Shown: one piece after another, positions 3,777 to 34,759 of the stretch
Position numbering within the stretch: the stretch's first letter is position 1
Layout: each line of letters starts with the position of its first letter
From: Rhodanobacteraceae bacterium
Lineage (GTDB): Bacteria > Pseudomonadota > Gammaproteobacteria > Xanthomonadales > SZUA-5
Assembly (NCBI GenBank): GCA_031425695.1
Contig: JANPJV010000314.1
Span: 2,293-66,292 of the forward strand
Direction of reading: 5' to 3'
Length of the DNA stretch: 64,000 nucleotides
The notes under the pieces: generated by a model
What the model was told of the DNA's origin: nothing
Database searches by the model: none
What the model saw: the letters and a program-made list of their open reading frames with translations, nothing else
Position numbers and translations under genes: made by a program

Positions 3777-4361
3777 TCAATTGTCGAGATTATCGGCAAG
3801 GCCGGCATGCGATGCCAGCCGCCGCGTCGCCGGATCATTCCGGTAGAAGCTGTAGGACAGGGTGAGCACGTTCACGTTCGCCGGCAGCTCCGGGTCGATG
3901 ACGAAGCGCAGCGGCATGGCGCGCGTTTCGCCCGGGTCGAGCGGCTGTTCGGTGAAGCAGAAACACTCGGTCTTGTTGAAGTACATCGAGGCGCGATTTG
4001 GGGCCACGCTCGGAACTGCCTGGCCGACGATGCGCTCGCTGCTGTTGTTGGTGGCGTCGTAAAAGGCTTCCACGACCTGGCCCGGGTGCACCGTCATCGA
4101 GGACAGCCGCGGCGAGAAGCTCCAGGGCAAGCCCGCACGCACATTGCCGTCGAACTGCACGGTGATGCTGCGGGAGCGATCGATCGCGGTCTCGCGCGCT
4201 GCTGCGGTTGCCTGCGGTCCGGTCTTGCCGTTGATCCCGGTGATCTCGCAATAGATCGAATACAACGGGATCAGCGCGAAACAGAACACGAAGGAGGCCG
4301 CGCACGCGAGCAACACCCGGCGCACCAGCGCCCGGTGCCGCCGTGTCGTGGGCGCGCTCAT
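3777..4361 (-). CDS. ctaG: cytochrome c oxidase assembly protein CtaG/Cox11
   Basis: 194 aa with an N-terminal TM followed by the Cox11 copper-site motif (KTECFCFTEQ). Confidence 0.9.
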   Translation of the reverse strand: MSAPTTRRHRALVRRVLLACAASFVFCFALIPLYSIYCEITGINGKTGPQATAAARETAIDRSRSITVQFDGNVRAGLPWSFSPRLSSMTVHPGQVVEAFYDATNNSSERIVGQAVPSVAPNRASMYFNKTECFCFTEQPLDPGETRAMPLRFVIDPELPANVNVLTLSYSFYRNDPATRRLASHAGLADNLDN

Positions 4362-7803: not shown

Positions 7804-8580
7804 TCAGCAGTTGATGCGGTAGATCAGCTCGCCGCTCGCCTTCTCGCGAGCCTTACCGACCTTCCCAACGGTGTACCGCAGGGCTGTCTCCACAACCGGG
7901 AAGCGGCGGAAGATACGGCGCATTTCGGGGTGGTCGTTGATGCTGAGCAAGGCCTTGCCCTGGAGCGTCGAGAACCGATCCGACAGAGCCTCGTACTCGT
8001 CGAGCCCGAAGGGCACGCCGTAGCCGGTGGTCTCCCAGTAGGGCGGGTCCAGGTAGAAGAGCGTGTGCGGCCGGTCGTAGCGACGAATGCAGTCACGCCA
8101 GGTCGAGGACTCCAGGTAAACCGACGAGAGCCGCATGTGGACGAGGGAAAGCTCCTCCTCGATCCGCAGCATGCTGAAGGGCTGAGGCGACGTTGTGGCA
8201 TAGCCGAAGGTGCGGCCCTCGACCTTGGCGCCGAAACAAAGACGCTGCAGGTAGTAGAACCGAGCCGCGCGTTGGATATCGGTCAGCGTTCGCGGGTCCT
8301 GGAGCTTTGCCCATTCGAACATCGTTCTGGAAACGAGAGCCCACCGGAACTGGCGAACGAACTCATCGAGGTGGTGCGCGACGCACCGGTAGAGGGTGAT
8401 CAAGTCGTCGTTGATGTCGTTCAGGACTTCGACCTTGGCTGGCTCGGGACGGCAAAAAAACAACCCGGCGCCGCCAGCAAAGGCTTCGACGTAGCAGTGA
8501 TGGGGTGGAAACAGCGGAAGGATGACTTTTGCGAGACGGCGCTTGCCGCCCGGCCACGGAATAAGGGGTTTCGGCTGCAC
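7804..8580 (-). CDS. dam: DNA N6-adenine methyltransferase (Dam/D12 class)
   Basis: 258 aa with N-terminal PWPGGKRRLAKVILPLFP and catalytic DPPY (FYLDPPYWETTGY). GTG start with a GAGGA Shine-Dalgarno. Confidence 0.85.
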   Translation of the reverse strand: MQPKPLIPWPGGKRRLAKVILPLFPPHHCYVEAFAGGAGLFFCRPEPAKVEVLNDINDDLITLYRCVAHHLDEFVRQFRWALVSRTMFEWAKLQDPRTLTDIQRAARFYYLQRLCFGAKVEGRTFGYATTSPQPFSMLRIEEELSLVHMRLSSVYLESSTWRDCIRRYDRPHTLFYLDPPYWETTGYGVPFGLDEYEALSDRFSTLQGKALLSINDHPEMRRIFRRFPVVETALRYTVGKVGKAREKASGELIYRINC

Positions 8581-8716: not shown

Positions 8717-8760
8717 ATCATTGCTCGCCGGCTACGCGTCTGGCTTGTGACGCGCGTCAA
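8717..8760 (-). promoter_or_regulatory. putative Mor/C-type activator-dependent promoter upstream of dam (dyad copy 3)
   Basis: Minus strand reads TTGACGCGCGTCACAAG (8760..8744; perfect 12-bp palindrome TGACGCGCGTCA at 8748-8759). A -10-like AATGAT (8722..8717) sits at the same spacing as in the copies at 22841 and 34712. Confidence 0.45.
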
Positions 8761-17575: not shown

Positions 17576-18042
17576 CGGAAGGTCCCGCCCCCGCACAGCG
17601 TGGCCGCGTCGGCGTAGTCCAGGCGCACTGGCCGGAACTCCTTCCAGGACGCAGCTGCCGGCGTGTAGCGGATGACGCTGGTGTAGAGCAACGGGCCGGC
17701 AAAGTCGCACACGGCAAAGGGGCTGAGCTCACCCCAGGGCGAGGGCGCGGTCGGCGGTCCGCCCAGTTCAGCACCGGCGCGCGACAGCGGGATCGGCACG
17801 CCATAGATCAAAGGCGTTTCTGCCGAGACTCCGGCGCTGCCGAAGGTGCACAGGGCGACCACAGCGGCTTCGCCTCCGGACTTGGTGATGCGCAGGCTGC
17901 AGCGATCACCTTCTGCTGTCTGCCACGCGCCCGACCAGAGCGAGGTGAGCGGCACATCCTTTGCGGCGACGGGCGAGGCGCAGGCAAACGTGAGGCACAG
18001 CATTGCGACGAACGCCACAGCGTGGCGAAGCGACCTATTCAT
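17572..18042 (-). CDS. secreted protein with signal peptide, unknown function
   Basis: 156 aa from ATG 18042. MNRSLRHAVAFVAMLCLTFACASPVAAKD is a signal peptide, followed by a Cys-containing mature domain. Confidence 0.6.
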   Translation of the reverse strand: MNRSLRHAVAFVAMLCLTFACASPVAAKDVPLTSLWSGAWQTAEGDRCSLRITKSGGEAAVVALCTFGSAGVSAETPLIYGVPIPLSRAGAELGGPPTAPSPWGELSPFAVCDFAGPLLYTSVIRYTPAAASWKEFRPVRLDYADAATLCGGGTFR

Positions 18043-18625
18043 GGACGGGCTCCAGGGGAAGTTCAGGGGTGGCGTAGCGCTCGACTTCGCAGCGTTCCGC
18101 CGCGAGGCGTTCGAGGGCAACGGTGATGGCGGCGTGGGTGTCGGCGGCGGCGGCACGGCCGTCGTAGAACTGCAGGAGCGCACCCACAGCCGCGGTGCAC
18201 GCTTCCTGCAAGGCATGGATGTCGCTGGGACGCGCGCGGCGCCCTGACGGCAGATCGACCAGCAACTGGTGCGCGCTGGCTGCGATGTAACGGGTGACGT
18301 AGGTGCAGCCACAGGCGTGCTCGTAAGGCCGAATCATTCGGGCCGGGATCGAGCCCTCGTTGATCCACTTGTAAATGACCCAGTGGCTGGGCAAGCCCAT
18401 CAGGTCGGCGATGCGTTCAACGCTGAGGTTCCGGGTGTCCAGCGCGAACTTGAGGCACAGCTCCATCGCGGCTGGCAAAGAGTTCGCGCGCTCGGCTTTC
18501 CAATTTCGGCGCAGCTTTGGAGCGGCCTTTTTCTTGGCCTCTCCAATCGCGGCTGGTTTCTGCCCTTGCGAACTAAGTTCGCCAGGGCCGAAACTCTCGC
18601 CACCTTTGAGCGGGCGAGACGTCAT
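18035..18625 (-). CDS. putative HTH regulatory protein
   Basis: 196 aa with a basic N-terminus and the HTH-like LSVERIADLMGLPSHWVIYKWINEG. Confidence 0.65.
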   Translation of the reverse strand: MTSRPLKGGESFGPGELSSQGQKPAAIGEAKKKAAPKLRRNWKAERANSLPAAMELCLKFALDTRNLSVERIADLMGLPSHWVIYKWINEGSIPARMIRPYEHACGCTYVTRYIAASAHQLLVDLPSGRRARPSDIHALQEACTAAVGALLQFYDGRAAAADTHAAITVALERLAAERCEVERYATPELPLEPVHE

Positions 18626-18954: not shown

Positions 18955-19245
18955 TCAGCGCACCGCCCTGATGCGCGAGCCAGTGCCGGGTCTGCGATGG
19001 CGCCAGCCGTGCGCCAGATCCCGCAGCAGCGCGAAAGCCAAGATCGGCATACCGAGGAAGATCGCCATCAGCGTGATGGAGATCAGGTACGCGCACAGTG
19101 CGCGGAGGCCGGCGTACACGCAAACCTCGACGGTCTGCGCTTCGATGATCAGCAGGACGATGGGCAGGGCCAGAACGGCCACGCCGACGCTGACGAGGAT
19201 TGCCATCAGCGCCAGGAAGAAGGATTTCAGGGTCAGTTGGTACAC
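18955..19245 (-). CDS. small polytopic membrane protein
   Basis: About 96 aa from GTG 19245 (GGAG 8 nt upstream); the track ORF starts at 19290. Three hydrophobic helices (FFLALMAILVSVGVAVLALPIVLLII, LCAYLISITLMAIFLGMPILAFALL). Confidence 0.55.
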   Translation of the reverse strand: MYQLTLKSFFLALMAILVSVGVAVLALPIVLLIIEAQTVEVCVYAGLRALCAYLISITLMAIFLGMPILAFALLRDLAHGWRHRRPGTGSRIRAVR

Positions 19246-19270
19246 GGGTGTTGCTCCGGTTGGGGGAGGG

Positions 19271-19564
19271 TCAGGCGGCTTTCGCCGCAAGGCGGGCTTC
19301 GAGGGCTTTCACGCGAGCGGAAAGCTCTGCAACGTTCAGTGGGCGCTTGCGGCGCCGGGCTTCTGGGCCGTGCCAATGCGGCCAGATTTCAGCCAGGCTG
19401 AGCCCGAGGAGAGTGGCGATCTTTTCCTCGATCTGACGGCTCCGACCCACGCTATGGATGACCGCACTCACCGTCTGGCGGTGTGCGACTTGGCACATTC
19501 GTGCGACATCGGCCTGGGTCAGACCGGCGCGTTCCAGCGCGTACTTAATGTCTATCGGGCTCAT
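19271..19564 (-). CDS. ner: Ner-family DNA-binding protein (first gene of the leftward early operon)
   Basis: 97 aa. DIKYALERAGLTQADVARMCQVAHRQTVSAVIHSVGRSRQIEEKIATLLGLSLAEIWPHWH matches the Mu Ner pattern (the ..IWPSRY-type ending). Confidence 0.75.
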   Translation of the reverse strand: MSPIDIKYALERAGLTQADVARMCQVAHRQTVSAVIHSVGRSRQIEEKIATLLGLSLAEIWPHWHGPEARRRKRPLNVAELSARVKALEARLAAKAA

Positions 19565-19655
19565 AGGCGTCTATGTTGGCGTGTGACACTGCAATGCGCT
19601 TTCGCAATGTGCCAAAGCATACGCCGTCGATGGCGCGTGGTGTCAAGGTGTTTGT
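19565..19655. promoter_or_regulatory. divergent promoter/operator region of the immunity switch
   Basis: 91-bp gap between the divergent Ner-family genes. Direct repeats GCAATG at 19591-19596 and 19604-19609. Inverted TGACAC (19584-19589) / GTGTCA (19640-19645). Leftward TTGACA (complement of 19641-19646) with TATGCT (complement of 19616-21). Confidence 0.45.
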
Positions 19656-20078
19656 ATGCACCCCGCTGACATTGCGGCCGCGCTAAAGAGGAAGAAGGTC
19701 ACTCAGGCCGAGGTTGCGGCGGCCTGCGGGGTGGTTCGCGGCGTCGCCAACGCAGTGGTACGGGGCGTTGGGCGGTCGAAGAAAGTCGAGGCCGAAATCT
19801 CGAACGTGACCGGCATACCACTCGAAGAGCTATGGCCGCAGTGGTATCCACCCGCCTCGGCCAAGGGCAATACCGTGTCTGTGCGAGGGGATCGCAACGT
19901 TACTGCTGGAGGCAAAATCGGCCATGTGGTTGATCCACAAACCAGAGACGCGTTCGCGCTATTCGTTTCGGGGCTAACACCCACCGAAGAGCGCTTGATC
20001 AGGCTCTATCGGGCGCTTGAGCCTGGGCAGCAAGAAGAAGTTGAACAGTTCATGCGGAAGAAACTCGCAGGCAACTAA
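19656..20078 (+). CDS. Ner-family HTH protein with C-terminal extension (candidate lysogeny repressor)
   Basis: 140 aa. The N-terminus HPADIAAALKRKKVTQAEVAAACGVVRGVANAVVRGVGRSKKVEAEISNVTGIPLEELWPQWY is paralogous to the ner-like gene on the opposite strand. An extra ~75-aa C-terminal domain follows. Confidence 0.7.
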   Translation: MHPADIAAALKRKKVTQAEVAAACGVVRGVANAVVRGVGRSKKVEAEISNVTGIPLEELWPQWYPPASAKGNTVSVRGDRNVTAGGKIGHVVDPQTRDAFALFVSGLTPTEERLIRLYRALEPGQQEEVEQFMRKKLAGN

Positions 20079-20095
20079 CCAACCTTGGAGTCGTT

Positions 20096-20485
20096 ATGTC
20101 AGCCAAGTACAAGCCGTTTGACCACATCGTTCATCCGCAATTTGTGCCTGGCTGGGTCGGCATGGCTGGATTCGTAAGCGGCATCCTCGCCTTGATTGGT
20201 GCCCTCGGCGTGGTCGCTGGTGGCATCCTGATGCTGGTCGCCTTTTCTACCGATCCGGGCACGACGTTCAGCCCGAAGCCGCCACCAGTCTTGTCGGCGA
20301 TGGGCGCCACCTATCTCATCGGCATGTCGCTTTCGATCTTCGCGCTGGCGTCGATCGTTGACAACCTCGCCGCATGCCGACTGCACCTGCTGGAGCTGGT
20401 CACATTGAAGGCTGTGGAGCAGGGAGTGCCACCGAATGTCGAGCCCGATGTGCAGACCTACGTGGGTCCGAGCACTGGTGCATAG
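20096..20485 (+). CDS. membrane protein (2 TM), accessory operon gene 1
   Basis: 129 aa with GGAG 8 nt upstream, starting 18 nt after the repressor-like gene. TM helices GMAGFVSGILALIGALGVVAGGILMLVAF and ATYLIGMSLSIFALASIV. Confidence 0.65.
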   Translation: MSAKYKPFDHIVHPQFVPGWVGMAGFVSGILALIGALGVVAGGILMLVAFSTDPGTTFSPKPPPVLSAMGATYLIGMSLSIFALASIVDNLAACRLHLLELVTLKAVEQGVPPNVEPDVQTYVGPSTGA

Positions 20486-20663
20486 AGGGGTGCGCCGCCC
20501 GGCACAGCTTTGCCACATCGAAACCCCCGTGGCCGGGCCTCTTGCGAGATCGATGCTTCCGGGCGGCGCAGGGTCATTCTCAGCCCGTGAGACTGACCCT
20601 GTCTATCAGTGAACAGCGCGAGCTGGCGTAGGAAATTTCCGACAACCCAACCCGAGGAACTCC

Positions 20664-21035
20664 ATGAACATCGACGTCATTGGAAACGGCAACAACACCG
20701 CTGGACGCGACCTGACGATCGTCCACATCACCCGCGACAATCTCAAGCTCTCCTGGGAAGCCCGCGTCACCGAGCACCTGCGCCCGCTCCAAATGCCGAT
20801 GCTGCTGTCGCTCCTCGGCCTTGTGTCCTGGGGCGCGGCCATGATGGGCGCGAACTACCTTGCAACCTACTACCGGGTGATGCCGCTTTTCGAGGATGCC
20901 GCTGTCGCCATCTATGGCATTGCCGGGTTCGGCTTTACCGCGTTTGCGATGTACACGCGGCGCAGGGCGGAGAAGGCATGCAGTGATGCGGGCGGCATCG
21001 CGCCAGGTGGGACATTTGGCGCCTCGGCGACATAA
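20664..21035 (+). CDS. membrane protein (2 TM) with N-terminal IDVIGNGNNTAGRDL motif, accessory gene 2
   Basis: 123 aa with a GAGGAA Shine-Dalgarno. The N-terminal motif is shared with ORF 22677 and with the repressor C-terminal domain. Confidence 0.65.
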   Translation: MNIDVIGNGNNTAGRDLTIVHITRDNLKLSWEARVTEHLRPLQMPMLLSLLGLVSWGAAMMGANYLATYYRVMPLFEDAAVAIYGIAGFGFTAFAMYTRRRAEKACSDAGGIAPGGTFGASAT

Positions 21036-21068
21036 CGTCAGGTTCAACCAACACCTACAGGGGGTGTC

Positions 21069-21953
21069 ATGCGACAGATCACAGCTAGCGTAGTGAACAT
21101 CGATGCCCATCCGCACGAGCCAGGCACCTATGGGTCCCTGATGAAGCAGCTCGTTGGCAGGAAGGTAGCTTATCGCGCGGAACGCTCGATGGTCGTGCGA
21201 GGCTTCGATGGCGATGGTCAGATACGCGGCGGAACTATTGTCACGTTCACCGACTTCGACCCAGACGCGCCCTGGTTCGACCCTGAGCTGCTAGACACTG
21301 CGGACGTCCGCGCGACCGAGGCCGCAAGAGCGGCGGTTCAGAAGATCAAGCCTTCCATGCAGGTTTTTCGCGCTGCGCTTGCCGAGATGAACGGCAGCAT
21401 TCACTGCCTCGTAGTCGAGACCAAGAATGAAGAGGGTGAATCGCTTTCGATCTCGCTCGTAGCTGAAGCGCTACGAAAGCTTGCCCTTGGCGTTTTGGGA
21501 GATGCCCCCAAAATGACCGTGAGCTTTTCTGTCCTGTCCAGCAACGACGAGGTGGAAAGACTGCTTTCAAAGCCGAACATTCAGCGCCTGCACGTCATTG
21601 TCTCGATGCCGAACATCGATGATGGGGAGGCCGAGGACAATGCTGTTCAGGAGGAATTGGAAAGGCTTGGCGCGACAAAAGAGGAACGAATCTTGACCGC
21701 CCCCGTCGCAAAGACCGGCGGCATCAAACCAGACGAAGAGTTGAAGAGGCTCGCGCGAGTTGCTTCGCGGCATGGCCGAGTAGAGGTCACCCACGGTTCA
21801 CGCGGCAAGACGAGAATTGAATCGACGTCCGACAAGCCTATTGTCGAGACGGCCAAGCCACATGATAAGGAGCCCTACTCCAGCGCCTTTAAGGGCTTGA
21901 TCAAGCAGTTCATCACTAGGCTCGCGATAGGAAAGAAGTTGGATAGCCAATGA
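21069..21953 (+). CDS. soluble 294-aa protein of unknown function, accessory gene 3
   Basis: AGGGGG Shine-Dalgarno and no TM segments. ATGA overlap with the following membrane protein. GC is visibly lower than in the phage core genes. Confidence 0.7.
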   Translation: MRQITASVVNIDAHPHEPGTYGSLMKQLVGRKVAYRAERSMVVRGFDGDGQIRGGTIVTFTDFDPDAPWFDPELLDTADVRATEAARAAVQKIKPSMQVFRAALAEMNGSIHCLVVETKNEEGESLSISLVAEALRKLALGVLGDAPKMTVSFSVLSSNDEVERLLSKPNIQRLHVIVSMPNIDDGEAEDNAVQEELERLGATKEERILTAPVAKTGGIKPDEELKRLARVASRHGRVEVTHGSRGKTRIESTSDKPIVETAKPHDKEPYSSAFKGLIKQFITRLAIGKKLDSQ

Positions 21954-22606
21954 GCGACAACGGCACCATTGACGTACTCAAGGTTGTTTGGGATATCTCT
22001 GGCGGGTGGCGGCGTATCTCACGCGCTTGGTACACCTGGGCGGCCCTGCTGATCAGCGTTCTCTGTTGGTCTCTCTGGTGGGACGCTGCCTGGTGGGATC
22101 TGTCGCTAGAGATCATCCCTGGAATGCTCGGTTTTTCGCTTGCCGGGTTTGCAATGATGTTGGCGTTTGGAGACGACCGATTCCGTGCCGTCCTTTCAAG
22201 GGCAATGGTGGTGACAGGCGGGGAAGGTACGTCCAAACATTCGGCCTTCATGGGATACGCAAGCATCTTTGTGCACTACTTGGTGGCACAGGTCCTCGGT
22301 CTCTTGCTTGCGATAATCGCCAAGGCCGAGCTGGGAATTCTCCCGCTCGTTGGTGGTACCGGGATATTTCGTTTCGCCATCGGCATTTGTCACTTCGTCG
22401 GTTTCTTCTTCGTCGTGTATTCGATTCTCATGGCCCTCGCAGCAACCCTCGCGGTTTTTCGCATGGCGCGAACCGCCGACAAAATCCAGCGGCTCCCGCC
22501 GCCCAAGCCTGATGCTGTGTCGCCAGAGGGCGAAATGTCCCATCCCGCTTCAGGACCTGTTGTCCCCGCGTCAGCTGCATTAACCCCGCCTGTCACCCGC
22601 GCATAG
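21950..22606 (+). CDS. polytopic membrane protein (about 5 TM), accessory gene 4
   Basis: 218 aa. TM helices include WAALLISVLCWSLWW, IIPGMLGFSLAGFAMMLAF, IFVHYLVAQVLGLLLAIIA and FAIGICHFVGFFFVVYSILMALAATLAVF. Pro-rich C-terminal tail. Confidence 0.7.
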   Translation: MSDNGTIDVLKVVWDISGGWRRISRAWYTWAALLISVLCWSLWWDAAWWDLSLEIIPGMLGFSLAGFAMMLAFGDDRFRAVLSRAMVVTGGEGTSKHSAFMGYASIFVHYLVAQVLGLLLAIIAKAELGILPLVGGTGIFRFAIGICHFVGFFFVVYSILMALAATLAVFRMARTADKIQRLPPPKPDAVSPEGEMSHPASGPVVPASAALTPPVTRA

Positions 22607-22676
22607 TCCCAGAGTCGCCTGGGAATTGCCTTCTCCCCTGGTTGCCATACTCGACTATGGCCGGGGGCGACCAAGC

Positions 22677-22835
22677 ATGAGCGACATTGATATCGAGGGC
22701 AGCAGTAACGCAACTTCTGGGCGCGACCTGGTCGTGGTGGTGATCCATCTGCACTTGAACATCGGCAGCGTCCAGCAGCTGGTGATGACGAATGCTCCGG
22801 CGCCGGAGCCCAAGAAAGCCGAGCCCCCGAAATAG
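22677..22835 (+). CDS. 52-aa protein with IDIEGSSNATSGRDL motif, accessory gene 5
   Basis: ATG 22677 inside track ORF 22626..22835. Sequence: MSDIDIEGSSNATSGRDLVVVVIHLHLNIGSVQQLVMTNAPAPEPKKAEPPK. Confidence 0.45.
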   Translation: MSDIDIEGSSNATSGRDLVVVVIHLHLNIGSVQQLVMTNAPAPEPKKAEPPK

Positions 22836-22836
22836 T

Positions 22837-22888
22837 CTCTTTGACTCACGTCACAAGACCCTAGACAGCCCTCGCTCCTAACCTGCAC
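22837..22888 (+). promoter_or_regulatory. putative Mor/C-dependent late promoter (dyad copy 1) upstream of the lysis cassette
   Basis: CTCTTTGACTCACGTCACAAGACCC...TAACCTGCAC. The dyad TGACTCACGTCA is at 22842-22853 and the -10-like TAACCT at 22879-22884. A near-identical block lies at 34708-34759. Confidence 0.5.
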
Positions 22889-22914
22889 CCGTCAATAGAT
22901 CGTGACGGGGAAGG

Positions 22915-23253
22915 GTGATGGAAACGGAGCGCACCACGGGGCCGGTCGAAGGGCCTATTCCGATGTCGCCGACAGAGGCGACGATCCACGAATTCGCTAC
23001 CGGCTGGCCGGTGCTCGTGCTGTTTCTGCTGTGCCTGATCGTGGTCTGGTGGATCGCGCCGGAGCGCGCGGCCATTGCGATCTGGATCCTCTGCCGCCTG
23101 GCGCTCGGCGCGTTTGCCGGGAACCTTTTCGGCGGCCTTCTTATCCCGATTGGTGACCCGCAGCAGCTTACCGGCCTCGCGCGCGGCAACGCGATCAACG
23201 CGCGAGCGGTCTGCATCGGCTTCGGCATGCTGGCCGCAGGCTGGACTCTGTGA
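22915..23253 (+). CDS. holin-like membrane protein
   Basis: 112 aa with 2-3 TM helices (WPVLVLFLLCLIVVWWI, AIAIWILCRLALGAFAG, AVCIGFGMLAAGW). GTGA overlap with the endolysin start. Confidence 0.6.
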   Translation: MMETERTTGPVEGPIPMSPTEATIHEFATGWPVLVLFLLCLIVVWWIAPERAAIAIWILCRLALGAFAGNLFGGLLIPIGDPQQLTGLARGNAINARAVCIGFGMLAAGWTL

Positions 23254-24017
23254 AGCTGCTAGGTCTCCTGGCGCTCTGCACGCTGCTGTTTCGGCTCAGC
23301 ATCGATCACTGGCCGCGGCTGCGCGACTGGTCTCTCCGCGAGGAGAGCGACGAGATTCTGAACATCGCCTACTGGTGCGACTTCGCCGTGGTGCTGATCC
23401 TGGCGATGATGGTGATCGCGAGCAGTCCCGCCGAGGCCGCCCCAGGTGCGGGCGCGACGCCTCACATTCCCGTGCGCGCGGACGGCTATTCCAAGCTGCT
23501 CGAGCGGGAAGCGGTCGGGCGCTTCGGCCTCAATGCGCCGGTCGCGTTGCTGGCGGCGCAGCTCCATCAGGAGTCGGGCTGGCGCACTGATGCGCAGTCG
23601 CCATACGCGCAAGGCCTCGCGCAGTTCACGCCAGCGACCGCGAAATGGATTCCCGAGGTGTGTGCTGACTTGGGTACACCTAACGTCTGGGACGCGCGCT
23701 GGTCGATCCGTGCGCAAGCCTGCTACATGCGGCACCTGCATGCACAGGTGGCCGACGCGGCGACGCCGTGCGACCGCTGGGCGATGGCGCTCTCCGCGTA
23801 CAACGGTGGCTTGGGGTGGCTCAATCGAGACCGGAAACTGGCGTCGGCTAACGGGGCTGATCGTGCCGTGTGGTTCTCGAATGTCGAGCTTCACTCCAAG
23901 CGCGCGGCGTGGGCCATCGCAGAGAACCGCGGTTATCCACGCCGCATCTTGACCACCCTCGAACCCACCTATCTGGCGGCCGGGTGGCCGGGGAGTCGCA
24001 CGTGCCCGGCTCTGTGA
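23250..24017 (+). CDS. lytic transglycosylase-type endolysin (SLT domain) with N-terminal hydrophobic segments
   Basis: 255 aa with the SLT catalytic region LLAAQLHQESGWRTDAQSPYAQGLAQFTPATAKW and ALSAYNGGLGW. N-terminal TM/signal-anchor-like helices. Confidence 0.8.
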   Translation: MKLLGLLALCTLLFRLSIDHWPRLRDWSLREESDEILNIAYWCDFAVVLILAMMVIASSPAEAAPGAGATPHIPVRADGYSKLLEREAVGRFGLNAPVALLAAQLHQESGWRTDAQSPYAQGLAQFTPATAKWIPEVCADLGTPNVWDARWSIRAQACYMRHLHAQVADAATPCDRWAMALSAYNGGLGWLNRDRKLASANGADRAVWFSNVELHSKRAAWAIAENRGYPRRILTTLEPTYLAAGWPGSRTCPAL

Positions 24018-25594: not shown

Positions 25595-27063
25595 GCGGAA
25601 TTGAAGTCCAGGTCGTTGACCAGGTGGTTCAGGTCTACGAGGGCATGGGTCCCGACGGTCCGCCAGGCCAGGGGTTGCCATCGGGCGGCACAACCGGGCA
25701 GCAGCCGCGCAAGGCCTCGAACATGGACTACGACGTCGAGTGGGTTGATCCGCCTGCCGGATCGGGCGACGTGGTGGGGCCAGCAGTCTCGGTCGATGAC
25801 CGTCTCGCAGGCTTCAACGGCACGACTGGGAAGCTGCTCCGGCAAGGCACGAAAACGCTTGCCCAGGTGGCCACCCATCTGGACAGCACGGCGAATCCGC
25901 ACGGAACCACGGCGGTACAGGTCGGGGCGGATCCAACGGGTACCGCGGCGGCGGCGGTAGCTGCACATGCTGGCGCGGCCGATCCACATGCTGACCGCGC
26001 GTTTGCCACCGCTGCGGTTGCGGCGCATGCGGGCGCAGTGGATCCACACGCCGACCGTGCTTTTGCCACAGCTGCCGTTGCCGCACATGCGGCAGCAGCT
26101 GGTGCGCATGAGATGGCGGGCGTAAACGGTTTGGCCGCGGCGCTCGCGCTACTGGCGCCGCTGCTTTCTCCAGCGTTGACGGGCAATCCGACGGCGCCAA
26201 CGCAGTCGGCCGGCAACTCCAGTACGCGGCTCGCAACGACGGCTTTTGTGGCGCAGGCGCTTGCAGACTTGATCGGCAGCGTGCCTGGCACGCTGGACAC
26301 GTTGGACGAGCTCGCCGCGGCGCTCGGTGATGACCCGAACTTTGCAGCAACGATTGCGGCGTCTATCGCGACCAAGCTGGCCAAAGCATCCAATCTCAGC
26401 GATCTGACTGACGCCGCGGCGGCGCTCACCAACCTCGGGGGCAGCACGCTCGGGAAAGCCATTTTCGCGGTTGCCAGCGCAGCCGCAGCTCGCACGCTCC
26501 TGCAGCTTGGTGGAGCTGCGCTGCTTGCGGTTGGCACCACAGCCGGGACTGTCGCGGCGGGCGACGATGCGCGCATCACAGGCGCGGTGCCGAGCACGCG
26601 CACGGTTGCAGGCGCAGGCCTGGTAACTGGGGGCGGCGACCTCTCGGCCAATCGCACCCTCACGGTTGGAGCCGCGTCGGCCGCAGATGTCAACACCGGC
26701 ACGAGTGCTGCGGTGGCAATGACTCCGGCGAGCTACAAGGATTCCACTCCGTTCTACGTCGATGTCGCGGCCGACAAGACCCTCCAAATCGCGGATGCGA
26801 ACGTCAACCAGCGCGTGAACAGCGCGAGCGCCATCGTGCTGACTCTGGCGCTGAACGCGACCGTCGCTTACCCGGCGCGATGCGTTTTCCCCGGGAAACG
26901 ATCGGGCGCGGGCACTGTGACCATCGACGCCGTCGCGGGGGTCACGCTCAACGGTGTGAACGGCGGAAGCTGCACCGTCAACACGCGCTATCAGGGCTTC
27001 CTGATCGAGAACGTGGGTGTGGATGCGTTCGAGATCTCCGGCGACGTGAGTGCGGTCGCATGA
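25591..27063 (+). CDS. tail fibre protein
   Basis: 490 aa from ATG 25591. Gly/Ala/Thr-rich, with 20-aa tandem repeats AVAAHAGA(A/V)DPHADRAFATA, an NPHG/DPH motif and TRLATTAFV, all typical of phage fibres. Confidence 0.75.
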   Translation: MSGIEVQVVDQVVQVYEGMGPDGPPGQGLPSGGTTGQQPRKASNMDYDVEWVDPPAGSGDVVGPAVSVDDRLAGFNGTTGKLLRQGTKTLAQVATHLDSTANPHGTTAVQVGADPTGTAAAAVAAHAGAADPHADRAFATAAVAAHAGAVDPHADRAFATAAVAAHAAAAGAHEMAGVNGLAAALALLAPLLSPALTGNPTAPTQSAGNSSTRLATTAFVAQALADLIGSVPGTLDTLDELAAALGDDPNFAATIAASIATKLAKASNLSDLTDAAAALTNLGGSTLGKAIFAVASAAAARTLLQLGGAALLAVGTTAGTVAAGDDARITGAVPSTRTVAGAGLVTGGGDLSANRTLTVGAASAADVNTGTSAAVAMTPASYKDSTPFYVDVAADKTLQIADANVNQRVNSASAIVLTLALNATVAYPARCVFPGKRSGAGTVTIDAVAGVTLNGVNGGSCTVNTRYQGFLIENVGVDAFEISGDVSAVA

Positions 27064-27872
27064 CGGTCGTTCGGATTCCGCGGTATCGGACGGCGCGGCG
27101 TTCTGCTGCGGTCGCGTTCACGGGGGCGCTGGACAGCTACACCACCAGCCTTTGGTTCGTGTATTCGACGCGCCTGCTGCTCTCTGCATATTTCGGCAAT
27201 CCGCTGCTGCGCGTCCGCCGCTCATCCGATGACGCGGAATTGAATATCGGGCACGCCAGCAATGGAGCGCTAGACACCGCAGCCCTGCTCGCATTCGCCG
27301 GAGCAGGCTCCGCGTACGTAAAGACCTTCTACGACCAGAATGGCTCGCGCAATGTCACGATTGGCACGAACGGCGCGCAGCCGCGGATCGTTAATTCGGG
27401 TGCAGTCGAGTTGATCGCAACCGGCATTCCCGGTGTGAAGTTTGACGGCTCGGACGATGGCTGGATGCAGACCGATCAGCCCAGCACAGCGACCGTTATC
27501 GCGACCATCAAGACATCCGACAGCGTCGGGACAATGCTGCATGCGGGTCCGCCGTACTACAGCTATGCCGGGCTATGGAATAGCGGCGACGGCAGCGGAA
27601 CTTCAGATTCGACCATATCGGTGCAGGCAGTAAATGGCACGGCGGTAGCTAACACCCGCGCGGCGTTGCATACCGTCGTCGCAACTGGTGTCCCGGTTCT
27701 TTACTACCTCGAAGTAAACACCGGTGGATGGACCGAGATTGGCTTCGGAGCCTATTCCGGCGCGTACAACGTCGACGGGACTGTGCGGGATTTCATTGTC
27801 TATTCGGCCGACATGAGCGCGAGCCAGGCCGGCATTGAAGCTGCGATCAACAACGGTGGGTGGATTTACTGA
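27060..27872 (+). CDS. tail-fibre-associated protein with ConA/LamG-like (arabinofuranosidase-B-like) signature
   Basis: 270 aa from ATG 27060 (ATGA overlap). LLRVRRSSDDAELNIG...YVKTFYDQNGSRNV resembles lectin-fold receptor-binding modules. Confidence 0.6.
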   Translation: MTVVRIPRYRTARRSAAVAFTGALDSYTTSLWFVYSTRLLLSAYFGNPLLRVRRSSDDAELNIGHASNGALDTAALLAFAGAGSAYVKTFYDQNGSRNVTIGTNGAQPRIVNSGAVELIATGIPGVKFDGSDDGWMQTDQPSTATVIATIKTSDSVGTMLHAGPPYYSYAGLWNSGDGSGTSDSTISVQAVNGTAVANTRAALHTVVATGVPVLYYLEVNTGGWTEIGFGAYSGAYNVDGTVRDFIVYSADMSASQAGIEAAINNGGWIY

Positions 27873-28387
27873 TGAATCCCGCACGCGAAATAAATGGCGT
27901 GATCGTTGCCTACCCGTATCTGCTCCGGCCCGATGCGAAGCAGGCGCATCCCGAAGTCAGTCCGCTGCCTGGCACGTGGGAACGGTGCTCGATCGATCAG
28001 CTCGTGGCGCTTGAGTGCGTCGACGTGCAGATGGTTGCGAGGCCGGCTCTGCGACCTGGTGATTCAGTTTCCGAAGGCGAGCCCGAGTTTGCCGCTGGCA
28101 TTTGGCGCCAGACCTGGATTGTGATTCCGGCCGGGGCTCCGTCTGCGCCTCCGGCCGTCGAGAGCCACAAATGCCGAATCGAGCTGATCGTTCGCGGTGA
28201 GTGGCAGCGCGTGCTGGCGATCGTCGCCGCGATGCCCGAGCCGCACCGCGCAATCGCAACTGAGGCCCTCGGCGCGCCCTACTACAACCGCAACAGTCCA
28301 ATGCTCGCCGCGCTTTCGCAGGGCATGGGCTGGAGCGCGGCCGATATCGACGAGCGCTTCGCCGCCGCTGCGGCCCGAATTGTTTAA
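27872..28387 (+). CDS. hypothetical protein (tail-fibre assembly candidate)
   Basis: 171 aa from ATG 27872, overlapping the upstream stop. Confidence 0.55.
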   Translation: MNPAREINGVIVAYPYLLRPDAKQAHPEVSPLPGTWERCSIDQLVALECVDVQMVARPALRPGDSVSEGEPEFAAGIWRQTWIVIPAGAPSAPPAVESHKCRIELIVRGEWQRVLAIVAAMPEPHRAIATEALGAPYYNRNSPMLAALSQGMGWSAADIDERFAAAAARIV

Positions 28388-34707: not shown

Positions 34708-34759
34708 CTCTTTGACGCGCGTCACAAGACCCAACCCAAGGACCTGCTGCAACCTGCAC
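34708..34759 (+). promoter_or_regulatory. putative Mor/C-dependent late promoter (dyad copy 2) upstream of the head/tail operon
   Basis: CTCTTTGACGCGCGTCACAAGACCC...CAACCTGCAC. Perfect palindrome TGACGCGCGTCA at 34713-34724 and a -10-like CAACCT at 34750-34755. Confidence 0.5.

Follow-up and report, generated by a model that had tools for sequence, protein, structure and literature searches.

The locus described here raises the question of whether the genes that follow the putative repressor gene of a prophage form a defence system and, if so, which of them belong to it. The DNA analyzed is a 64,000-nucleotide stretch of the Rhodanobacteraceae contig JANPJV010000314.1 (assembly GCA_031425695.1), hereafter called the window, which has a GC content of ca. 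65% and carries a Mu-like transposable prophage from ca. 7.66 kb rightwards. An earlier reading of the window (the original prediction) held that five open reading frames (ORFs) located downstream of a helix-turn-helix (HTH) gene (19656-20078) form, together with this gene, one operon coding for a candidate new defence or exclusion system that mirrors lambda cI-rexA-rexB. All five ORFs are indeed present on the plus strand downstream of the HTH gene, and in each of them the GC content of the three codon positions follows the order GC3>GC1>GC2, as expected for real genes at 65% GC. We find that the system is most plausibly reduced to two of the five genes, coding for a 294-aa DUF4747 protein and a 218-aa partner with four predicted transmembrane (TM) segments. 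By analogy with published systems, this pair is probably a two-component module for abortive infection or exclusion that resembles Rex and is expressed from the prophage.

The conserved DUF4747 pair

The 294-aa product, the soluble component of the pair (21069..21953, plus strand), matches the Pfam family DUF4747 (PF15931) with an E value of 5.2e-28 and a score of 98.6 bits against a cut-off of 27. The match covers profile positions 1-254 of 257, which amounts to full-length membership, and is accompanied by a match to phrog_10040 (E=4e-25). The statement that no described family can be recognized among the five products is therefore wrong for this protein, as the Pfam hidden Markov model (HMM) check revealed. 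The motifs of the family, N-x3-HPH, a central histidine and (R)PN-x-DD, are all present (N10, H14-P15-H16, H112 and P181-N182-x-D184-D185); the motif residues are invariant or nearly invariant across 54 sequences, and Y21 is also among the conserved polar residues.

An exhaustive HMMER search of a representative library (50%-identity clusters) retrieved 565 relatives of DUF4747 (E<=1e-3), nearly all of which are 280-325 aa long; DUF4747/4-TM cassettes are thus widespread. The nearest relative is 56% identical to the window protein and the remainder ca. 30%. Word-indexed protein searches returned essentially the query alone, even with the 54-sequence profile, and a search for related loci with the query and its 56% relative retrieved none in genomes, IMG/VR or metagenomes. 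No match was found when 50,697 sequenced phages were searched at the DNA and protein levels with the region and with the 294-, 218-, 140- and 123-aa products (the 140-aa protein is that of the HTH gene), and tblastn with three DUF4747 proteins detected zero copies in the same phage genomes. Although DUF4747 has a PHROG of its own and was found in at least two Mu-like prophages, it seems rare among isolated phages.

The start codon of the 218-aa inner-membrane partner (21950..22606, plus strand; phrog_20580, E=2.4e-29) overlaps the DUF4747 stop codon (ATGA). Each ORF had been credited with a Shine-Dalgarno sequence of its own; good ones are found for the first three, those of the 218-aa and 52-aa ORFs are weak, and the 218-aa gene relies on the start/stop overlap with the 294-aa gene. 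The same product had been described as a polytopic protein with about five TM segments. It is a membrane protein, as proposed, and it has four conserved segments, the fifth hydrophobic stretch being located in a variable loop. Family-averaged hydropathy and the distribution of lysines and arginines in nine sequences, interpreted by the positive-inside rule, predict four TM segments with both termini inside (N-in/C-in), a topology that is a matter of prediction throughout.

A degenerate pattern (HPH ... RPNPDD) was scanned over species-representative genomes, and the 26 matches obtained were reduced by the family HMM to seven true loci, which belong to Shewanella, Aeromonas, Nitrosovibrio, a Rhodocyclaceae metagenome-assembled genome (MAG), Falsiroseomonas, Paracraurococcus and a gammaproteobacterial MAG and so span the alpha-, beta- and gammaproteobacteria. 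An eighth locus is located on the Acinetobacter lwoffii plasmid NZ_CP118966, where a PGAP-annotated "DUF4747 family protein" is paired with a 209-aa partner (hmmsearch E=4e-53); this pair belongs to the same two-gene family as the window pair. A homologue of the 218-aa protein is encoded directly downstream of DUF4747 in each of the eight independent loci. In the seven genomic ones it is a membrane protein of 182-241 aa (phmmer E=1e-24 to 1e-28). Mechanical ORF calling makes the two genes overlap by 1-23 nt in six of these loci; there is no overlap in the seventh or on the plasmid. No homologues of the HTH protein or of the three small ORFs of the block (orf129, orf123 and orf52, named after their lengths in amino acids) were detected in the seven genomic loci. 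Since the pairing is invariant and is not accompanied by homologues of the small ORFs, it follows that the conserved unit comprises two genes, 21069-22606, and the five-gene scope of the original prediction does not hold. As judged from these comparisons of sequences, the functional unit is a two-gene DUF4747/4-TM cassette of ca. 1.55 kb.

The composition of the block points in the same direction. The lower GC content noted earlier for the block relative to the phage core is real: no kilobase of the window has less GC than 21001-22000 (0.565, compared to 0.62-0.71 over most of the window). GC3 is 0.65-0.67 in the 294-aa and 218-aa genes, 0.74-0.79 in the three small ORFs and 0.80-0.82 in the adjacent lysis genes. 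The GC3 of the pair is thus well below that of both the small ORFs and the lysis genes, which argues for a separate, foreign origin of the pair. In addition, a structured 178-bp gap splits the unit formed by the HTH gene and orf129 from the other four ORFs, so a single five-gene operon is not demonstrated.

The settings of three other copies are those expected of defence cargo. One cassette (L024) adjoins a Type ISP restriction-modification enzyme, and another (L017) adjoins an SNF2/PLD helicase and a methylase. In the Rhodocyclaceae MAG (L031, 1773-5781), the cassette is inserted in a second Mu-like prophage, where it separates the Mu F-like head gene from the Mu I protease/scaffold gene. In A. 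lwoffii, it is carried by a small plasmid and lies beside a RelE/ParE toxin-antitoxin pair.

A separate observation concerns Nitrosovibrio tenuis (L026, 3258-5651), where the cassette is located directly downstream of, and on the same strand as, rdgC (Pfam RdgC, E=3e-95). RdgC is a reported structural relative of lambda RexA, and its presence here may be a coincidence or a hint of ancestry.

The Rex-like reading and its alternatives

One can expect a Rex-like pair to lie on the repressor strand, next to the repressor and outside the lytic operons, as lambda rexAB does. The late-promoter dyad proposed for this prophage proved to be real: TTGACKCRCGTCACAAG is found at 22841-22857 and 34712-34728 on the plus strand and at 8744-8760 on the minus strand, i.e., three times compared to 0.07 expected occurrences. 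The first copy (22841..22857, plus strand; TTGACTCACGTCACAAG) is where the late operon of lysis and structural genes starts, and the five-ORF block ends 5 bp short of this copy. Since the late motif starts only downstream of the block, the block is outside the lytic late operon, as had been proposed. The pair is co-oriented with, and downstream of, the HTH gene that occupies the position of the repressor, which is the location of RexAB, and because it lies upstream of the late promoter, it is positioned for expression in the lysogen. We expect that it would be expressed there.

The analogy with cI-rexA-rexB remains the best reading of the 294-aa/218-aa pair. In both cases a soluble protein of ca. 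280-290 aa is followed by a 4-TM protein, on the repressor strand, in the vicinity of the repressor and outside lytic operons. There are differences: the window partner has 218 aa and RexB 144 aa, and two small ORFs and the 178-bp gap are found between the repressor gene and the window pair. DUF4747 has been reported as a domain common to RexA, Sbash gp30, CarolAnn gp44 and Butters gp30 (PMC6426596, PMC6426606, PMC7542560), and the Rex analogy for DUF4747 proteins was drawn independently in PMC6426596, PMC6426606, PMC7542560 and PMC13373217. Four TM segments are a property of RexB, Sbash gp31, CarolAnn gp43, Butters gp31 and RexBpp (PMC6426596, PMC6426606, PMC7542560, PMC12894663), and the CarolAnn, Sbash and Butters pairs provide phage-specific defence (PMC6426596, PMC6426606, PMC7542560). 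As is proposed for the window, these three are soluble plus 4-TM pairs expressed from a prophage, that of CarolAnn being co-transcribed with the repressor; CarolAnn gp44, however, has 370 aa and is not matched by DUF4747 profiles, whereas the window protein is a strong full-length member of the family.

The closest match in gene order is prophage P1 of Pseudomonas putida, in which a CI-like repressor gene is followed by two genes dispensable for defence and then by RexABpp, in which a RexA-like protein binds DNA and a 4-TM protein acts as the effector and, once activated, damages the membrane (PMC12894663; 2026). The succession of repressor, two small genes, RexA-like protein and 4-TM protein is nearly the same as in the window. 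RexApp is larger (37.5 kDa with tag) than the window protein, and the two are likened by gene order and description; the RexABpp termini derived from primers (MHRTATFV...) were matched neither in IMG/VR nor among 150 representatives. A further paper names "DUF4747/CarolAnn" as one of the operons with a known or predicted immune function that lie downstream of CapK/CapS in Acinetobacter (PMC13373217; 2026), and so the claim of a novel system was not borne out. The likeness of these operons to the window comes from the shared DUF4747 label. Other copies are placed under a DNA-damage kinase/repressor pair or are plasmid-borne, whereas the window copy resides in a Mu-like prophage beside a paralogue of a Ner-type repressor. 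Judging by its profile matches, the window pair belongs firmly to the DUF4747/4-TM cassette family, which others have flagged as a predicted immune operon.

In the Rex-like reading, the pair could be transcribed from the repressor promoter, by read-through, or from a promoter within the 178-bp gap in front of orf123, and translation of the partner would be coupled to that of the cytoplasmic DUF4747 protein. The latter would be a putative RexA-like sensor of an infection cue. RexA, like its actinophage homologues, binds DNA non-specifically as a dimer and has a fold akin to that of RdgC (PMC11077077), and by analogy with RexA, Sbash gp30 and RexApp, the cue may be an intermediate of phage DNA or of phage DNA and protein. 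The activated sensor would switch on the 4-TM partner, a putative RexB-like effector, which would depolarize or permeabilize the membrane and so halt growth of the infected cell. Both the defence activity of the pair and this sensor-effector mechanism are suggested by the published analogues.

Several results weigh against this interpretation. No window protein matched Pfam RexA (PF15969) or RexB (PF15968) at E<=0.1, although lambda's own proteins did so at 1e-97 and 8.5e-92, and BLASTP of the window proteins against RexA and RexB was negative. Comparison of 54- and 151-sequence DUF4747 profiles with four RexA homologues and CarolAnn gp44 by hhalign and hmmsearch was likewise negative, as was that of a partner profile with RexB and CarolAnn gp43; a sequence search of the PDB with the window protein gave noise only, and CarolAnn gp44 has no Pfam DUF4747 match at E<=10. 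The link between DUF4747 and RexA comes from weak HHpred matches reported by others, which were not reproduced here. Two AlphaFold models of the 294-aa protein, built from a two-sequence alignment, are poor, with mean confidence (pLDDT) values of 44 and 47. When the first was submitted to Foldseek, RexA (8TWQ) ranked 6-7 with E~1, which is not significant, and with the best root-mean-square deviation (rmsd) and probability in the list; with the other model, RexA 8TWQ was absent among the 50 matches listed, none of them significant. PADLOC-DB v2.0.0 produced 0 matches for the five products and for all 54 aligned DUF4747 sequences, and the searchable literature holds no experiment on this locus or on any bona fide DUF4747/4-TM pair, so the cassettes are absent from PADLOC v2 and experimentally uncharacterized. 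Finally, the repressor transcript could end within the structured 178-bp gap, and the conserved histidine and aspartate motifs hint at a chemistry that is not known for RexA. The locus is Rex-like by architecture, predicted topology, position and literature, and by sequence it is not a member of the lambda RexA/RexB or CarolAnn gp44/gp43 families.

The conserved motifs lead to the first alternative, namely, that the pair is a defence module with a mechanism unlike that of RexA, in which DUF4747 is an enzyme and the resemblance to Rex is architectural only. The invariant or near-invariant residues N10, H14-P15-H16, Y21, H112, P181-N182 and D184 and the lack of any detected similarity to RexA or CarolAnn gp44, by sequence or by profile, speak for it. 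Conserved residues by themselves are no proof of catalysis, however, and other groups did find DUF4747 and RexA-like proteins to be linked by HHpred (PMC6426596, PMC6426606, PMC7542560); the one weak Foldseek match to RexA, with its best rmsd and probability, also argues against it. We regard this explanation as unlikely. A more elaborate proposal is considered just as unlikely: the soluble component is perhaps, instead of a RexA-type DNA clamp, an enzyme or sensor that uses N-x3-HPH, the central histidine and PNPDD to gate the effector, with orf123 and orf52 modulating it, e.g., by preventing self-exclusion upon induction.

It is also improbable that the pair serves the prophage's own cycle, by tuning the lysis-lysogeny switch or the timing of lysis, rather than exclusion. 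Lambda RexA does bind DNA and bias the switch to lytic growth independently of RexB (PMC11077077), and the window cassette is located between the immunity region and the holin and endolysin genes. Yet the cassette is found outside prophages as well, beside restriction-modification and helicase genes and on the Acinetobacter plasmid, where there is neither a phage switch nor a lysis cassette; in the window it lies upstream of the late promoter and not within the lysis operon, and close architectural relatives of the prophage do without the pair.

We find it very unlikely that the pair has no anti-phage role and is a toxin/regulator (addiction-like) or membrane-stress module that stabilizes mobile elements. 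The partner would plausibly be toxic when activated, as RexBpp is (PMC12894663), and the plasmid cassette has a RelE/ParE toxin-antitoxin pair for a neighbour, but the neighbouring restriction-modification and helicase defence genes and the prophage "moron" slots are typical of defence genes, and the published analogues all confer phage-specific protection (PMC6426596, PMC6426606, PMC7542560, PMC12894663). Least credible of all is that the five ORFs and the repressor make up a single integrated defence system with many components that represents a new family: the ORFs share a strand and mostly short spacers, and the N-terminal motif common to orf123 and orf52, on either side of the pair, could suggest linked roles, but the small ORFs and the HTH gene have no counterparts in seven other DUF4747 loci in which the pair is invariant, the GC3 of the small ORFs is near that of the phage core and implies another origin than that of the pair, the structured gap divides the block, and the two genes between the repressor and rexAB of P. 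putida P1 are dispensable for defence (PMC12894663).

Should the pair protect the lysogen, as the Rex-like reading has it, an example from a proteobacterial Mu-like prophage would join the Rex-like abortive-infection class, and the true DUF4747/4-TM family, so far tied to defence just by weak homology and gene neighbourhood, would obtain its first functional handle. The architecture and the repressor-adjacent position are what published Rex-like systems predict and will not surprise a specialist; the main value of the locus is that it offers a compact, easily cloned and testable representative of a widespread family.

The cargo slot between the repressor and lysis genes

The late motif at the end of the block is followed by a holin-like gene (22915-23253, plus strand), an SLT endolysin gene (23250-24017, plus strand) and, further on, the terminase gene. 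The possibility that the block is part of this lysis cassette was considered and rejected, since the pair occurs elsewhere without lysis genes and is located upstream of the late motif here.

In the B3-like phage JBD18, which has the same architecture, merely ca. 240 bp separate the repressor-position gene from the holin gene. In an IMG/VR relative (L035), the same slot houses three unrelated genes, coding for a 267-aa lipoprotein, a 156-aa zinc-ribbon membrane protein and a 131-aa protein. From the near-empty junction of JBD18 and the different genes of L035 it follows that the repressor/lysis junction is a variable cargo slot, occupied here by the DUF4747 pair; the junction of B3-like transposable phages is thus shown to be a place where cargo genes are swapped in. 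The accessory and non-late status assigned to the block earlier, and its horizontal acquisition, are supported by the GC content of the pair, the lowest in the window, the low GC3 of the pair, the variability of the slot and the position of the late motif beyond the block. The data support the view that the prophage gained the pair by horizontal transfer, as cargo (a "moron") placed between the gene in the repressor position and the late lysis operon.

Small genes of the block and regulators of the prophage

The three small ORFs, which have no matches in Pfam, PHROG, NCBIfam or PADLOC, are separate lineage-specific genes in the same slot, outside the conserved cassette. The first of them, orf129 (20096..20485, plus strand; GC3 0.74), begins 17 bp past the HTH gene, has a GGAG Shine-Dalgarno sequence and codes for a small membrane protein with 2-3 hydrophobic segments. 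It is followed by the 178-bp gap (20486..20663, plus strand), in which stem-loops can be drawn at 20491-20502/20559-20570 and 20569-20582/20588-20601: a 12-bp perfect inverted repeat with a 56-nt spacer abuts a 14-bp hairpin, and there is no U-tract. The RNA of the gap is predicted to fold with -74.4 kcal/mol (z=-2.0). An Rfam scan of 19000-23500, the gap included, gave zero matches, and scans for sigma-70 promoters and terminators remained at background level. The gap may be a terminator, an attenuator, a separate promoter region or a binding site for a regulator.

On the other side of the gap, orf123 (20664..21035, plus strand; GC3 0.79) has a GAGGA Shine-Dalgarno sequence and codes for a protein with two moderately hydrophobic, possible TM segments (ca. 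residues 43-62 and 78-97), which were judged by eye, none of them reaching the hydropathy cut-off. The last gene of the block, orf52 (22677..22835, plus strand; 52 aa from the ATG; GC3 0.79; weak Shine-Dalgarno sequence), was predicted as a gene of 52 aa on a separate, identical contig as well. The products of orf123 and orf52 share the N-terminal motif M-x-IDvxGxxNxTxGRDLxxVxI (52% identity over 21 aa, BLASTP E=5e-6), which was not matched in IMG/VR, in family libraries or in the rest of the window. The DNA segments encoding it, 20664-20730 and 22677-22745, lie on either side of the DUF4747 pair. A recent duplication caused by insertion of the cassette was rejected as their source because the DNA is too diverged, with just an 11-nt core in common. 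A similar short string, "NNSVAAGRDVN", occurs in the 156-aa zinc-ribbon membrane protein that L035 carries in the same slot (3852-4322, minus strand), and the linker of the 140-aa HTH protein contains another, "GDRNVTAGGKI".

The 140-aa product of the repressor-position gene (19656..20078, plus strand) contains a Pfam HTH_35 domain (E=6e-9) and matches phrog_769, "transcriptional repressor"; by its position, it is the putative repressor of the prophage. A divergent gene (19271..19564, minus strand) codes for a Ner-like HTH_35 regulator of 97 aa (Pfam HTH_35, E=4e-7; phrog_769). The gene is in the Cro/Ner position, at the head of the leftward early operon. The two proteins are 45% identical over 67 aa (E=1e-19), and by this similarity the divergent switch regulators are Ner-type paralogues; the plus-strand copy has an additional C-terminal half of ca. 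70 aa. Between the two genes lies a 91-bp divergent control region (19565..19655) with short GCAATG repeats and inverted repeats, which probably serves as an operator. Further along the leftward early operon, the Ner-like gene is followed by a cII-like gene (18035-18625, minus strand), and the same operon codes for a transposase of 581 aa, which shows 37-39% identity to B3-like and BcepMu-like transposases, and for an AAA_22 MuB-like ATPase.

In L035, an orthologue of the 140-aa protein (48% identity over the HTH) is located in the same position. The divergent HTH_35 arrangement is also the same there, and the early operon contains a third HTH_35 gene (L035 6310-6918).

At the left end of the prophage (ca. 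7.66 kb), the final gene codes for a D12-class (Dam-like) DNA adenine methyltransferase (7804-8580, minus strand; Pfam E=5e-23). The third copy of the late motif (8744-8760, minus strand) points leftwards and lies just upstream of this gene. As can be seen, a methyltransferase gene and a late motif at the prophage end resemble the late, C-dependent mom at the end of the phage Mu genome. Within the late region, the kilobase with the lowest GC content (0.604) is 27001-28000; apart from the cargo block and the junction between prophage and host, no other kilobase is as low. Two ORFs that overlap this kilobase, 26880-27872 and 27860-28387, may be further cargo.

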